DNA of 64,000 bases from a virus. Lineage: Duplodnaviria > Caudoviricetes. The stretch is taken from the IMG/VR virus record IMGVR_UViG_3300027608_000010, one strand, 5' to 3'. Shown here in pieces: positions 9,325-30,071 of this stretch. The notes beneath the pieces were generated by a model that did not search any database, was not told the DNA's origin, and saw only the letters and a list, made by a program, of their open reading frames with translations. Made by a program: the position numbers and the translations under genes. Within the stretch, counting starts at the first letter, position 1, and each line of letters starts with the position of its first letter.

Positions 9325-10244
9325 AAAATCAACTCTGGGTAGAAAAATATAGACCTCATTCTGTAGAAGATTATGTCTTTGTAGATGACAGACAGAAAGA
9401 GCAAGTTAACGGTTGGATAGAAACTGAAAGCATCCCTCATCTATTGTTAAGTGGCGAACCCGGTACAGGTAAGACTACACTTGCAAAAGTTCTTATACAA
9501 GAATTAGGTGTAGAAGAATATGATGTATTGGAAATCAATGCATCACGTGAGAATAGTGTTGACGTAGTGCGAAACAAAATCATTGGCTTTGTGCAAACAA
9601 TGCCATTTGGTAAATTCAAAGTCGTATTATTAGATGAGGCAGATTATCTAACTCCAGCAGGTCAGGCAGCATTGCGTAATGATATGGAAGCATATCACAT
9701 GACTGCACGATTTATTCTAACTTGTAACTATGAACACAGAATTATCCCTGCACTTAAAAGCAGATGTCATGAATTTAGAATAACTAAAACGGATAAGACA
9801 GAATTTACTGCACGTGCCGCAACAGTATTGGTTGCTGAGAACATAGACTTTGATTTAGATATACTAGATAGCTATGTCAGTGCTACATATCCTGACTTGC
9901 GTAAGTGTTTGAATCAGATTCAAGTAAATAGTAGTACGGGTAAATTGTTACCTCCAGTAGATGCTGGCAAAGGTGAAGATGAATTGCTTTTTGAAGCAAC
10001 ACAATTGTTTAAAGCAGGTAAAATTTTAGAAGGTCGTCAGCAATTACTACAACATTTAAGTTTATATCCTAGTAGATTAGAAGATATCTATCGTTGGCTG
10101 TATAATAATTTAGATTTGTGGGGTAATTCAAACGAGAAGCGTGATGCTAGTATCATTATCATTCGTAATGGTCTAGCGAATCTATCAATGGTTGGCATCC
10201 CTGAGATCAGTCTTGCAGCCACAATGGTAGAATTAACAAGTTGA
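9321..10244 (+). CDS. Clamp loader ATPase subunit (RFC small / T4 gp44-like)
   Basis: LWVEKYRP, Walker A GEPGTGKTT, EINAS, Walker B LLDEAD, and the SRC arginine finger (LKSRC). Confidence 0.93.
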   Translation: MKNQLWVEKYRPHSVEDYVFVDDRQKEQVNGWIETESIPHLLLSGEPGTGKTTLAKVLIQELGVEEYDVLEINASRENSVDVVRNKIIGFVQTMPFGKFKVVLLDEADYLTPAGQAALRNDMEAYHMTARFILTCNYEHRIIPALKSRCHEFRITKTDKTEFTARAATVLVAENIDFDLDILDSYVSATYPDLRKCLNQIQVNSSTGKLLPPVDAGKGEDELLFEATQLFKAGKILEGRQQLLQHLSLYPSRLEDIYRWLYNNLDLWGNSNEKRDASIIIIRNGLANLSMVGIPEISLAATMVELTS

Positions 10245-10251
10245 GAACAAT

Positions 10252-10503
10252 ATGAGATATTTTTTAGTAACATACGTAACTAAGCCTGATGGCAAGATTG
10301 ATGAACAAGTAGAGATTTCTAAAAATCTAAAGGATAGAGATATTACTATGTGTAATATTATTTTAGATTTTAAAGAAAAGAATGTTCAGAAGAATGTAGT
10401 TCAAGGTAATGTGATGAATCTATCATGGAGTACACTGCTAGAATATTACAAAAAAGTATATCCAGACCAAATTGATCAATTAGAAAAAATTAACGGAATA
10501 TAA
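10252..10503 (+). CDS. Hypothetical protein
   Basis: 83-aa ORF following the clamp loader. Confidence 0.55.
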   Translation: MRYFLVTYVTKPDGKIDEQVEISKNLKDRDITMCNIILDFKEKNVQKNVVQGNVMNLSWSTLLEYYKKVYPDQIDQLEKINGI

Positions 10504-10531
10504 AAAAATAGGGATGTTATGAGCACCCCTA
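10502..10531 (-). terminator. Rho-independent terminator of phoH (possibly bidirectional)
   Basis: Minus strand reads taggggtg-ctcataa-catcccta followed by a T7 run. Confidence 0.7.
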
Positions 10532-10538
10532 AACCCGA

Positions 10539-11327
10539 TTAAGCGTACAGTCTAAGTACGTGCTCTATAATTTTGTGGCGTTGAACATCTTTCAGTTCAA
10601 AGTTACACAATTGCAACCCTGGAATCACCCCCTTCCCCAATCGATTTTGTAAGTCTAGTAGCCCATTGTCGGCTTTTTTTCTATCAGCTTGTTCTATGTC
10701 GCCAGTAATTACAATCTTACTGCCGATACTGATTCTAGTCATAATCATCTTGAGTTGACTGGGGGTTGCGTTTTGAGCCTCATCTAATACGATATAGCTA
10801 TGTTTAAAGTTTCGACCTCGACAGAATGCTAGGGGTGCAATTTCCACTATCTGTTCTTCTAGCATGTGGGCGATTTCCTTTACCGTATAATACTCTCTCA
10901 ATACATCAAGCAAAGGTCTTGTCCAAGGTTCCATCTTAGCGTTCAGATCACCTGGCAAGAAGCCATGCTTTTCATCATCTACCCCAACGGCGGGTCGTGT
11001 AAGAATGATACGAGAAACTTCACCTGCTTTTAGTGCTTTGATTGCAGCTAACATAGCAAGATAAGTTTTTCCCGTTCCTGCAGGTCCACCGACCACGACA
11101 ATATCAGTCTCTTGGTCTAGTAGTGCGAGGATATATTTTTCTTGGTTTACTGATTTGGGCACCATGACAATGGGCTTACTATTCAGCTTAGGACGACTTT
11201 GGTCAAAGTTGATTGTTTTTGATTCGTGTGTGTAGTATGTTTTCTGTGTGTTATCGTATTTTTTACTGTGTGCGTATCTTGTATCTTGATCCTGAGTGCG
11301 TAAAGCACTTGTTTTGCGTTTGCTCAA
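10539..11327 (-). CDS. phoH: PhoH-family ATPase
   Basis: GPAGTGKTYLA, IILTRPAV, GFLPGDL..K..PW, PLAFCRGRNF, LDEAQN, ITGD..QAD. TTG start with AGGAG RBS at 11334..11338. Confidence 0.95.
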   Translation of the reverse strand: MSKRKTSALRTQDQDTRYAHSKKYDNTQKTYYTHESKTINFDQSRPKLNSKPIVMVPKSVNQEKYILALLDQETDIVVVGGPAGTGKTYLAMLAAIKALKAGEVSRIILTRPAVGVDDEKHGFLPGDLNAKMEPWTRPLLDVLREYYTVKEIAHMLEEQIVEIAPLAFCRGRNFKHSYIVLDEAQNATPSQLKMIMTRISIGSKIVITGDIEQADRKKADNGLLDLQNRLGKGVIPGLQLCNFELKDVQRHKIIEHVLRLYA

Positions 11328-11348
11328 AATATTCTCCTTTTTAGAGCC

Positions 11349-11365
11349 GAATGCTCATAACATTC
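11349..11365 (-). promoter_or_regulatory. Hairpin in the phoH 5' leader whose loop is complementary to the phoH terminator loop
   Basis: Minus strand gaatg-ttatgag-cattc. The 12-bp inverted repeat 10514..10525 / 11352..11363 flanks phoH. Confidence 0.6.
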
Positions 11366-11481
11366 AAGAGTATTTAAGGTGAAACGGTCCACGCAATATA
11401 GCATACTTTTAACACATCATCTGGTGATAAATATTAGGCTACGCTACAAAAAATCTAATTGCTCATTATCATTGCAAGAAT

Positions 11482-11489
11482 GATAAATA
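11482..11489 (+). promoter_or_regulatory. Late promoter-like GATAAATA (a second copy lies at 11426..11433)
   Basis: NATAAATA immediately upstream of ATG 11495. Confidence 0.55.
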
Positions 11490-11494
11490 CAACT

Positions 11495-12118
11495 ATGAGT
11501 AAACTTCCATCTGACGACTTTTTTAAAGATATAGATTATCCAAATATTATTGATAATATCAAGGGTATCTTCACCAGCGACGGTACCATTAATACATTGC
11601 TTGACTTTGAGCGTGTATTAGATGAGGCAGACTTGTACGCATACCAGAACTGGGAACTAGGTGAACTTGTCAACGGTCCTATTAGCAAAAAATACACAGT
11701 AACCTGTGTGTTTATGTATCCCGAGAAACTAATGCCCAATCCAAAAGGTGGAAAGAGATTAACACACTTAGGATGTACTATACATTTCAAGAAAACATCA
11801 ATTGAAGTTCCAGTAAAAATCGAAGGACATGAAGATTTTGAACCAGGCACACATTATCCTAAGATGGTTGAGAAGCCGGTATGGTTAGTACGTATTGAAA
11901 TACCAAGAGAATTAATGAATGATGTCCGTGAAGGTAGTATTGACTTAGCAGGACAGACAATTGAACTAGATGATTTAGATTCAGCATACGAAGATGACCT
12001 AGATAAAGAAGGTACTGAAGAACAAGGTAATGCGCCAGCCAATCAGGCTATGGGTCAACCACCAATGGCGGGCGGTATGCCACCGCAACCAATGGCACCC
12101 CCTCAGGGAGCAATGTAA
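11495..12118 (+). CDS. Hypothetical, probably virion/head-associated protein
   Basis: Likely start is ATG 11495 after the late promoter; acidic protein with a Met/Pro-rich tail. Confidence 0.55.
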   Translation: MSKLPSDDFFKDIDYPNIIDNIKGIFTSDGTINTLLDFERVLDEADLYAYQNWELGELVNGPISKKYTVTCVFMYPEKLMPNPKGGKRLTHLGCTIHFKKTSIEVPVKIEGHEDFEPGTHYPKMVEKPVWLVRIEIPRELMNDVREGSIDLAGQTIELDDLDSAYEDDLDKEGTEEQGNAPANQAMGQPPMAGGMPPQPMAPPQGAM

Positions 12119-27597: not shown

Positions 27598-28959
27598 ATG
27601 GCAAGTAAAATACAATTAAGACGAGATACAGCAATCAATTGGTCTAACAACAGTTCAGTTGTACTATCATCCGGAGAACCCGGATTTGAAACAGATACCG
27701 GTAAATTCAAAATTGGTAACGGTGTTGACAACTGGAATAGTTTAGACTATGCTGGTGGTGCAGTCACAAACAACGGTTCAGTATATATAGGTGATGGTGC
27801 AGGTAGTTGTAGTAGCGCATGTTGCTCAGTTGGTATTGGAAATTGTGCAGGTAATTGTTGTCAAGGATGTTGTGCAGTTGCTATCGGCGATCAAGCAGGA
27901 GAATACTGTCAAGGATCTAATGCAGTTGCTATTGGAAATTGTGCAGGACAATGCTGTCAAGGATCTTATGCAGTTGCTATAGGTTCTTGTGCGGGTGAGT
28001 GCTGTCAAGGATGCAATGCTATTGCTATTGGTCAATGTGCAGGACATTACTGTCAAGGATCTAACGCTATTGCAATTGGTCAATGTGCAGGATATGGCTG
28101 CTGTTGCGAAAGTGGTCAATCAGATTATGCAATTGCAATAGGTAATGACGCAGGTTATTGTGACCAAGGGACTTATGCTATTGCAATTGGTAAAAATGCA
28201 GGTTATTGTTCTCAGGGAGATTGTGCTATTGCTATAGGTCATTGTGCAGGTAATTGTTGTCAAGGTTTTGGTGCTGTGGCTGTAGGAGATATTGCAGGTA
28301 ATTGTGATCAAGGTGATCACGCTGTAGCGATAGGTTATGCTACAGGAAATTGTAATCAAGGTCACGGTGCTGTTGGTATAGGTGTATCAGCAGGTCGAAA
28401 CTCTCAAGGTGAATACGGTATAGCTATTGGGTATCGTACAGCTAGATGTAATCAACAAACAAACGCTATTGCAATTGGTACATACGCAGCCGAAGCAGAT
28501 GTATTTTATACTGTTGAGCATGACGGTGCTTATGTTGGAACTAACGACGGTTCAGACAGTACAATAACATTAACTAATGCATTTGATTTTAGTTCGGTGC
28601 GCCCAGGCATGGTACTTACTAATAACGGGTATAACAATATGTTAATATTATCTATTAGTGGAAATACATTAACATTAGCAGGAACACCCAATAACGGATC
28701 AGTGATTTCCGGTAATCAGTTCAATGTTGATGGTCGTCAAGGTACGAATGCTATTGCTATTGGTGCATATGCCGCAAGATATTCTCAATCACCTAATAGT
28801 ATCGTAATCAATGCAACAGGAAGCGAATTACGAAGTCAAGGTACTGGTACAACAGTAATTCAATCATTAAGACAGGTATCAGGTGGAACTGCACCGAGTG
28901 GATTTACTCCGGTATACTGGAACCCAACAACAGGTGAATTAATCACTGTTACAGCATAA
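27598..28959 (+). CDS. Tail fibre with an Mtd_N-type N-terminus and Cys-rich YadA-head-like 14-residue repeats
   Basis: MASKIQLRRDTA.NW....VVLSSGEPGFETDTGKFKIGNG followed by (xxQGxxAIAIGxxAG)n. Confidence 0.82.
   Translation: MASKIQLRRDTAINWSNNSSVVLSSGEPGFETDTGKFKIGNGVDNWNSLDYAGGAVTNNGSVYIGDGAGSCSSACCSVGIGNCAGNCCQGCCAVAIGDQAGEYCQGSNAVAIGNCAGQCCQGSYAVAIGSCAGECCQGCNAIAIGQCAGHYCQGSNAIAIGQCAGYGCCCESGQSDYAIAIGNDAGYCDQGTYAIAIGKNAGYCSQGDCAIAIGHCAGNCCQGFGAVAVGDIAGNCDQGDHAVAIGYATGNCNQGHGAVGIGVSAGRNSQGEYGIAIGYRTARCNQQTNAIAIGTYAAEADVFYTVEHDGAYVGTNDGSDSTITLTNAFDFSSVRPGMVLTNNGYNNMLILSISGNTLTLAGTPNNGSVISGNQFNVDGRQGTNAIAIGAYAARYSQSPNSIVINATGSELRSQGTGTTVIQSLRQVSGGTAPSGFTPVYWNPTTGELITVTA
27790..28490 (+). 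repeat. Degenerate 42-bp (14-aa) tandem repeat array, about 16 units
   Basis: Recurring caaggatctaatgc..ttgctattgg...tgtgcagg units. Confidence 0.85.
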
Positions 28960-29197: not shown

Positions 29198-29442
29198 TCT
29201 TTAGTTGAACTTATAATGACCGTAGATGATTCTTTGTCTACGGTCATATATCCCTCACACGCAAAGTTCCAATCGTCTCCGCCTGCACCGTTACCAGTAA
29301 CTTCATCCTGTACAGGTACGTTAATCTTTACATGTTTAACGAGATATTCTACCCCATTCTCAAACACACGCCATGCGTGATCCACCGAACCACGGCCGGG
29401 TTGTCCCCTAGACTTGTTGAATCTTATATGATACTTGTTCAT
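29194..29442 (-). CDS. Hypothetical protein (MNKYHIRFNKSRGQPGRGS...)
   Basis: 82-aa ORF coupled to 29439..30071; the + strand has no competing ORF. Confidence 0.65.
   Translation of the reverse strand: MNKYHIRFNKSRGQPGRGSVDHAWRVFENGVEYLVKHVKINVPVQDEVTGNGAGGDDWNFACEGYMTVDKESSTVIISSTKD
29216..29247. terminator. Hairpin at a convergent gene junction (possible bidirectional terminator)
   Basis: atgaccgtaga-10 nt-tctacggtcat is an 11-bp perfect stem where the + and - genes converge. Confidence 0.55.
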
Positions 29443-30071
29443 ATAATAATAGGGCCCGCTTTTACTGGCTTAGTGCTAGGTCTAACACCAAGATTAAAGT
29501 GAACTAATCGTGTTGGGTCTTTACTAGGATTACGAGTAACGCTATGCGGTAACCAACTGTTAATAAAGTACATTCTTCCCGGTTGAGGAACAAACAATAT
29601 TGTTTCACTAGAATCAGTTATTTTATTTAAATTGGCTTCACGTAAATTAACCAATCTACGACCTTGTCTTGGGTCGTGAATAGCAACTTTACAACTATCC
29701 TTAGGTGTATCAATAAAATAGAATCCAGTAATTTGATTCCCATCACCGTGAACATGTTCTTCATGGCCTTGCATATAATGATGTTCTTGTGCCCACATTT
29801 CTGTAAAATATGTTTCCTTGTCACTCATAGCATGACCTTGATTATCTAAGATAGTCCAAGCACTTTGTGCTATAAAAGCAGTAAAATCACTAATCATTTC
29901 TTCATGGAAGATACTTTCAGTCTGTACCGGGTATATCGGGTTTACTTCAGACTTCTTTCTTTCAAACAGATATTGCATTGAAATTAGTGTAACCATGTCT
30001 AAGAATTCCGGTTTATCTACAGAATAGATTGTACTAGGAAAATGTTGATGGGGGGTTAGTGTCGTAGTCAT
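29439..30071 (-). CDS. 2OG-Fe(II) oxygenase (TIGR02466-like)
   Basis: WAQEH...HEEHVHG..ITGFYFID, IHDPR, PQPGRMYFINSWLPHSV, HFN. Confidence 0.8.
   Translation of the reverse strand: MTTTLTPHQHFPSTIYSVDKPEFLDMVTLISMQYLFERKKSEVNPIYPVQTESIFHEEMISDFTAFIAQSAWTILDNQGHAMSDKETYFTEMWAQEHHYMQGHEEHVHGDGNQITGFYFIDTPKDSCKVAIHDPRQGRRLVNLREANLNKITDSSETILFVPQPGRMYFINSWLPHSVTRNPSKDPTRLVHFNLGVRPSTKPVKAGPIII

Follow-up and report, generated by a model that had tools for sequence, protein, structure and literature searches.

On a 64,000-nucleotide (nt) stretch of DNA from an uncultured virus (Duplodnaviria; Caudoviricetes; IMG/VR record IMGVR_UViG_3300027608_000010), which in its whole length we call the window, the gene phoH is flanked by two hairpins that carry exactly complementary 7-nt loops on its messenger RNA (mRNA), one in the 5′ leader and the other in the intrinsic terminator. 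We consider it probable that the two ends of the phoH mRNA pair with one another in this phage and in four other lineages, and that the complementarity has been kept by selection. Our comparison set comprised about 240 related phoH loci, 143 of them distinct, from lake viromes and metagenomes (the metagenome relatives being the best 80 of more than 530), and genome-wide checks were made on the relatives' records. In these alignments both loops show the pattern of purifying selection in all five lineages, together with one compensatory double change. The elements concerned are these:

11371–11377, minus strand: TTAAATA box resembling a T4 late promoter, about 5 nt upstream of the 5′ hairpin, with a putative promoter role and predicted start site
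11349–11365, minus strand: 5′ stem-loop GAAUG / UUAUGAG (11360–11354) / CAUUC, with stem covariation
11352–11363: right arm of the inverted repeat, 12 nt, exact reverse complement of ATGTTATGAGCA
11344–11347, minus strand: GCUC box between the hairpin and the Shine-Dalgarno sequence, with a putative role
11340–11334 and 11327–11325, minus strand: Shine-Dalgarno sequence AAAGGAG and UUG start codon
10539–11327, minus strand: phoH coding sequence, 262 amino acids (aa), a PhoH-like P-loop ATPase with a basic 55-aa N-terminal extension (PF02562, E 6e-68; phrog_170, E 2e-67)
10514–10525: left arm of the inverted repeat, 12 nt, sequence ATGTTATGAGCA
10502–10531, minus strand: intrinsic terminator UAGGGGUG / CUCAUAA (10523–10517) / CAUCCCUA followed by U7 (10508–10502)

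A preliminary description of the window had singled out a 12-nt inverted repeat around phoH, a leader hairpin GAAUG-UUAUGAG-CAUUC just downstream of a late-like box, and a terminator UAGGGGUG-CUCAUAA-CAUCCCUA-U7 with an exactly complementary loop. All are present: the repeat at 10514–10525 and 11352–11363, the hairpin at 11365–11349, about 5 nt after TTAAATA (11377–11371), and the terminator at 10531–10502. UUAUGAG and CUCAUAA are fully complementary, as the sequences of kissing loops are. Repeats of this length are common in the window (16 exact inverted repeats of at least 12 nt within 1.5 kb, versus 8.2 ± 3.4 expected from Markov simulations), so the repeat alone is not beyond chance and the case must rest on its placement and on comparative data. 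Seven of the 12 nt are loop, and the remaining five arise because the top base pairs are common to both stems.

Repeats of another kind lie nearby. The string GTATTAGATGAGGC recurs, with 12–14 nt identical, on the sense strands of three adjacent genes, those for a clamp loader (9628–9639, plus strand), PhoH (10777–10790, minus strand) and a 219-aa virion protein (11615–11628, plus strand). It codes for V-L-D-E-A, which in PhoH is Walker-B-like, and its copies yield exact inverted repeats equal to or longer than the 12-nt repeat flanking phoH.

The phoH leader stem-loop

Across 55 distinct leaders, pairing is kept in 97% of the cells of the five-pair 5′ stem, against 6–45% for partner columns slid out of register, and compensatory changes mark four of the five pairs. 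The compensated variants include GAAUG/CAUUC, GAGUN/NACUC, GUGUU/AACAC and AUGCU/AGCAU, and RNAalifold finds the same stem in 71 leaders. Wobble cells on the mRNA strand number 19 G·U versus about 5 A·C, an excess that points to a structure formed by the sense transcript of phoH. In the window, a covariance model built on the leader has a single match (E 3e-11); three relatives' records, of which two are complete genomes of 350 kb, yield one match apiece, and every match precedes phoH. Among Rfam families, nothing relevant was found at E up to 10 across 10400–11520. Sequence comparison marks the 5′ stem-loop as a leader RNA that is conserved and specific to phoH.

The loop is conserved as well as the stem. 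Its core, UAUGAG, is found in about 70% of distinct loci, the remaining loci having unrelated 5′ loops such as GAAA, CAAAG, UUCACAG or UUCAUCA, and the loop is conserved above neighbouring spacer positions even in relatives that have no 3′ partner. We considered several roles for it and set them aside. A start codon or upstream open reading frame (ORF) at the loop AUG is not supported by its frame relative to the UUG, which is random (12/13/16 over the three frames); the upstream ORF would range from 3 codons to more than 27. Variant loops of the form UU-NNN-AG (CAC, UAC) are too few and too drift-like to be read as complements of other anticodon loops. A RegA-type translational operator is not supported either, the RegA homologue (PF01818) being absent from three relatives searched, two of them complete. 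Another CUCAUA partner within the phoH mRNA is absent in most relatives. In the clade of L020, L028 and L039 the 5′ loop is CUCAUCA or UUCAUCA, which comes close to the usual loop read as its reverse complement, as though recombination between the stem arms had flipped it; the terminators in this clade are ordinary.

The box upstream of the stem-loop is consistent with the late-like promoter named in the preliminary description: TAAATA is almost invariant in the family, ending 3–5 nt ahead of the stem, positions T14, A15, A16, T18 and A19 of the 55-leader alignment are invariant, and some relatives carry the canonical T4 late box TATAAATA. If these boxes act like the late promoters of T4, transcription would begin at about the first base of the stem, which would make the 5′ hairpin 5′-terminal. 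The same box fronts other genes of the window, whose leaders are short and have no hairpins. Contigs from RNA libraries that contain phoH end at 11329–11357 and DNA contigs extend past this point; this would fit transcription that starts close to the hairpin, and we do not count it as evidence for the transcript ends, the RNA-library contigs being unstranded and open to DNA contamination and uncovered stretches proving nothing.

Downstream of the stem-loop, the C44 T45 C46 of the GCUC box are at least 90% conserved. RNAalifold pairs the CUC of this box with the GAG of the Shine-Dalgarno sequence, without covariation; in the fold of the window's own leader the box is paired instead with GAGC of the loop. 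The TTGAGCAAA start, with AAGGAG 6–9 nt upstream, is found in 78 of the 79 leaders of the first set (the exception has TTGGGC; L077 is truncated at its 5′ end), and later leader sets that include the start codon have the same arrangement of start and Shine-Dalgarno sequence. In essentially every relative whose leader sequence includes the start codon, a UUG (TTGAGCAAA) stands behind a strong AAAGGAG. A weak start codon kept so strictly suggests regulated, low-level translation of phoH.

Complementary terminators and the fate of the loops

The terminator of the window begins 7 nt past the TAA stop and consists of an 8-bp stem, a 7-nt loop and U7 (−10.4 kcal/mol); it was matched by a terminator scan and has the make-up of an intrinsic terminator. 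Most relatives have an ordinary AAAAGGGGC-N3-5-GCCCCUUUU terminator after phoH (GGGGC-type), and the loops of these GC-type terminators are short, vary freely and are unable to pair with the 5′ loop. A 7-nt terminator loop CUCAUAA or CUCAUAU was found at 12 of the 143 distinct loci, in five lineages:

the window, with L002 and L461
L011, L013 and L507
L010, L472, L463 and L474
L059, L060 and L510
L478, L484 and L491 (lineage E), with the loop CUCAUAU

Exact complementarity between leader and terminator extends over 7–13 nt in these five lineages, versus 3–6 nt (7 in one case) in the 131 other loci. The flanks of the five lineages are just 60–70% identical, and their terminator stems have accumulated about 12 changes, mostly compensated pairs (GGGAUG/CAUCCC, AGAGGUG/CACCUCU, GAGGGG/CCCCUC, GAGGGU/ACCCUC). 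At the 14 loop positions there are just two changes, which lie on the same branch (lineage E), at paired positions, and are complementary: a 5′ U→A accompanied by a 3′ A→U converts UUAUGAG/CUCAUAA into AUAUGAG/CUCAUAU, and the stems of L478, L484 and L491 differ. The AUAUGAG 5′ loop was found in no locus without the matching terminator, and a search for the lineage-E 5′ loop pattern across IMG/VR returned only the contig already in the set. Between L011 and L059, the hairpin core is identical at 21 of 21 positions, phoH at 78% and the downstream flank at 63%. Covariation of the loops in related phages had been put forward as a check on the preliminary description, and the outcome is a pair of loops frozen in five lineages with this one compensatory double change.

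The 5′ loop motif has been lost in none of the 12 loci with a complementary terminator and in 44 of the 131 others. Confinement of loss to loci without a partner fits relaxed constraint once the partner is gone; we place little weight on this pattern because the lineages are not independent.

In the phoH tree, loci with a complementary terminator lie at the base of a 45-row clade, with one further lineage in the sister clade, and the label needs at least four changes. From its distribution among the sequences, the complementary terminator looks like an old trait, ancestral to the large clade and replaced or lost repeatedly. L474 has it and the near-identical relatives L022 and L024 do not. Recent recombination moving the terminator between lineages was considered and rejected, as the flanks are not unusually similar. 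Nor is the CUCAUAA hairpin a generic terminator of these phages, since in the relatives' genomes a hairpin with this loop is confined to the phoH terminator and to genes for methionine transfer RNA (tRNA-Met). A separate clade (L040, L045-L048, L498 and L499) has another 5′ hairpin (GUGAGAG...CUCUCAU) and another terminator (CAGAGGGGGAG...CUUCCCCUCUCCAG), and the purine-rich arms of the two complement each other (duplex −19 to −23 kcal/mol); these may be another form of 5′–3′ pairing, or a coincidence of similar stems.

Predicted folds differ among the five lineages. In the window lineage the top stem pairs are shared too, giving exact complementarity of 12–13 nt, and the full-length fold of the predicted 866-nt mRNA, with both transcript ends predicted, contains a 15-bp end-to-end helix (pair probability 0.998 for the window; the value for L002 is 0.99). 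In three other lineages the pair probability of the 5′–3′ helix is about 0 to 0.1; the predicted folds of L011, L010 and L059 keep the two hairpins closed and their loops unpaired, which is the kissing geometry. When leader and terminator were paired with RNAduplex, the window and L002 were strongest of 78 loci, with the L040-L048 clade also high through its similar purine-rich stems.

Two hairpins acting separately would account for part of this picture: a stabiliser or protein-bound operator at the 5′ end and a plain terminator at the 3′ end, their complementarity a historical by-product (of an old inverted duplication, for example) that entails no contact in vivo. Most relatives do keep the 5′ hairpin and its loop without a complementary terminator, 12-nt inverted repeats are common in the window, and a 5-bp stem with a 7–9-nt loop just upstream of the Shine-Dalgarno sequence is the layout of a protein-bound operator, the translational operator of T4 gene 43 being a hairpin of this kind in this position. 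A by-product would be expected to decay, however, and the terminator loop is instead frozen across lineages whose flanks have diverged as far as those above, while the loops of GC-type terminators vary freely; the sole changes in the loops form a complementary pair, and the complementary type of terminator is restricted to phoH. We regard separate action as unlikely, though it deserves to be taken seriously.

The preliminary description had also offered the repeat as recombination sites for an invertible phoH segment. On this reading the sites would be short palindromes around a 7-bp asymmetric spacer, set in inverted orientation and flipping phoH. The geometry is indeed like that of lox/FRT-type sites in inverted orientation, such sites need identical spacers (including the covarying pair), and phoH is reversed relative to its neighbours. 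Yet orientation was fixed in all scorable loci: phoH lies in one orientation in 80 of 80 loci with 3-kb flanks and in 156 of 162 loci with 400–600-nt flanks, the other six having no neighbour match, and the fixed orientation covers every complementary-terminator locus. There were zero inversion joints in the DNA contigs and no recombinase among the phoH neighbours. The arms of the two sites share just 2–3 bp and covary as RNA stems with G·U pairs, and most relatives have one site only, with orientation unchanged. An invertible phoH segment is, on these grounds, scarcely credible.

The identity of CUCAUAA with a tRNA-Met anticodon loop raises a further alternative, in which both loops relate to tRNA-Met and their complementarity in cis is secondary. 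The terminator loop would mimic the anticodon loop or serve as a decoy for it, and UUAUGAG, showing its AUG, would dock initiator or elongator tRNA-Met or a tRNA-like RNA. The same 7 nt form the anticodon loop of two tRNA-Met genes in a close relative and of a tRNA-fMet-like gene of G003, and in a complete relative with a GC-type terminator, scanned in full, CUCAUAA hairpins occur only in tRNA-Met genes. Docking to tRNA-Met would explain why the 5′ loop survives where the terminator partner is missing. Long GUG-CUCAUAA-CAC hairpins turn up more often than a reversed-pattern control in viral contigs that are unrelated (13 of 72 distinct contexts, versus 0 of 51), although they occur there in both orientations and could be attP-like cores.

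The resemblance of the phoH terminator to a tRNA stops at the loop: its stem is 8–9 bp long and followed by a U tract, unlike the 5-bp anticodon stem, and it has no tRNA scaffold and, unlike YrlA-type Y RNAs, no Y-RNA handle. In lineage E the terminator loop, CUCAUAU, no longer matches that of tRNA-Met, and the change in the 5′ loop follows the terminator, not the tRNA. ARAGORN found no tRNA genes in the window, and the idea was framed after the data had been seen. We think a link to tRNA-Met improbable, and we are just as sceptical of a more specific version, in which the 5′ loop docks an anticodon loop, supplied by initiator tRNA-Met or by a tRNA-like RNA of the phage, coupling the UUG-started phoH to the tRNA-Met pool, with the CUCAUAA terminator as a built-in competitor or mimic.

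Two observations on these tRNA-related sequences are recorded here in their own right. The GUG-CUCAUAA-CAC hairpins of IMG/VR (at least 7 Watson-Crick bp; contigs L081-L196, versus control contigs L370-L438) lie in both orientations, and T-runs accompany some of them; they might serve as terminators, imitate anticodon arms or represent attP-like cores at tRNA-Met genes. In tRNA clusters of the relatives (L223 2569-2643, L315), an initiator-like tRNA-Met with a C1-A72 mismatch and without the usual three G-C pairs of the anticodon stem lies beside a second tRNA-Met.

Source phage and surroundings of phoH

The source of the window is a freshwater, T4-like jumbo phage, uncultured, from a lake. 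It has no DNA similarity to cultured phages (zero matches by megablast and blastn against 50,697 phage records), and at the protein level its best matches to cultured phages are below 50% identity. Relatives number in the hundreds in IMG/VR and JGI lake metagenomes, with PhoH identities of 74–100%; some are complete contigs of about 350 kb with 24–33 tRNA genes. The sequencing runs that contain this DNA are freshwater and lake metagenomes.

Almost all ORFs of at least 120 aa in the window are on the plus strand, and phoH, on the minus strand, is reversed relative to its neighbours, as the preliminary description had stated. It is one of just two non-overlapping minus-strand ORFs of this size, the other being a 210-aa ORF at 29439–30071 (minus strand) in a window otherwise directed rightward. 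Its surroundings encode a gp44-like clamp loader, a GroES/gp31-like protein, virion proteins, a DnaJ-like protein, a holin-like protein and an 83-aa ORF with zero Pfam matches. The gene is a self-contained leftward transcription unit within a rightward-transcribed region, arranged in the order TAAATA late-type box, 5′ stem-loop, GCUC box, AAAGGAG, UUG, phoH and intrinsic terminator.

A terminator-like hairpin with a T-run lies on the plus strand at 11293–11311, antisense within the 5′ end of phoH, and could block rightward read-through ahead of the next gene. Farther away, four copies of a 12-nt near-palindrome, CAATTGCAATAG / CTATTGCAATTG, occur in about 400 nt (28067–28478) within the ORF 27598–28959.

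Proposed end pairing of the phoH mRNA and its counterparts

Since the complementary terminator loops appear to be kept by selection, the terminator loop and the 5′ loop most likely kiss. After termination and release, the terminator loop would contact the 5′ loop over 7 bp, and in the window lineage the kiss could extend to a 12–15-bp end-to-end helix, closing the mRNA on itself. A closed phoH mRNA could shield its 5′ end from 5′-end-dependent entry of RNase E and strengthen its 3′ end, and the pairing could hold the leader in one conformation near the GCUC box, the Shine-Dalgarno sequence and the weak UUG start. In this way pairing may tune the lifetime and translation of the phoH mRNA. The transcript ends, the pairing itself and its physiological effect are all things we infer.

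Several points weigh against end pairing. The 5′ hairpin is weak when taken alone (−5.4 kcal/mol) and is not the minimum-energy fold of its 66-nt context (z −0.66), so that its reality rests on the stem covariation; a U·G closing pair is possible, which would leave a 5′ loop of 5 nt instead of 7. The compensatory evidence is just one event in a single clade, and identical spacers are also required by a pair of tyrosine-recombinase sites, so covariation alone cannot tell whether RNA or DNA is behind it. The transcript ends are predicted, and the RNA-library contigs, which are unstranded, cannot show them. The phage is uncultured and the case is computational throughout.

The distribution of the partner sets the scope of the reading. 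The 5′–3′ kissing proposed in the preliminary description stands for five lineages, through their frozen loops and the compensatory pair, and fails as a family-wide trait: about 90% of distinct relatives have no 3′ partner, and two thirds of these retain the 5′ loop. Pairing is therefore neither the sole reason for the loop nor essential for phoH; it is an accessory layer. Because most relatives conserve the 5′ loop without this partner, the loop must have another one, either a protein (possibly PhoH itself) or an RNA acting in trans.

Parallels for parts of this arrangement exist. ColE1 RNA I and RNA II have fully complementary 7-nt kissing loops, and their kiss can progress to an extended duplex; phoH likewise has two stem-loops with fully complementary 7-nt loops. 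Unlike the ColE1 loops, which act in trans between antisense transcripts, those of phoH lie on one sense mRNA, about 830 nt apart. Stem-loops of the ompA type at the 5′ terminus are mRNA stabilisers. The phoH hairpin resembles them, and the T4 gene 43 operator, in being short, at or near the 5′ end and upstream of the Shine-Dalgarno sequence, and its conserved loop suggests a specific partner; unlike them, it has an RNA partner in cis in some lineages. Kissing of a leader hairpin with the loop of an intrinsic terminator is not known to us from any earlier report.

Few mRNAs of bacterial type are known whose 5′ and 3′ ends pair under selection; hok and icaR are among them. The tac/fbi fold-back of the hok mRNA of plasmid R1 (hok/sok) stabilises and silences the full-length transcript (PMC9841398, which cites Thisted et al. 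1995 and Franch et al. 1997). The phoH version, a predicted 15-bp helix, would resemble that of hok in being a long-distance 5′–3′ contact that closes the mRNA, stabilises it and fixes the conformation of its leader, and in having a short upstream box that adjoins the Shine-Dalgarno sequence. Unlike hok, phoH is an ATPase gene and not part of a toxin-antitoxin system, with no antisense RNA or activating 3′ processing seen; its contact would begin with a pair of hairpin loops, that of the terminator among them, and the end pairing would leave the Shine-Dalgarno sequence free. In Staphylococcus aureus, the 3′ untranslated region (UTR) of the icaR mRNA pairs with its own 5′ UTR and controls expression (PMC3868564). 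There the anti-Shine-Dalgarno sequence of the 3′ UTR blocks the ribosome site (PMC3868564), whereas the phoH pairing would join a terminator loop to a hairpin upstream of the Shine-Dalgarno sequence. The proposed end pairing of phoH would belong with these known long-range contacts within mRNAs as a new form, founded on a leader RNA motif of phoH that is itself new.

The gene phoH is among the most widespread of phage 'auxiliary' genes and a common marker of phage diversity. Our analysis defines a conserved, uncatalogued, phoH-specific leader RNA in a large family of freshwater jumbo phages and provides evidence at the level of sequence, in the form of frozen loops and one compensatory double change, for pairing of the leader loop with the terminator loop in some lineages. 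The family also offers natural controls, in that close relatives have the partner, lack it or carry a matched variant pair.

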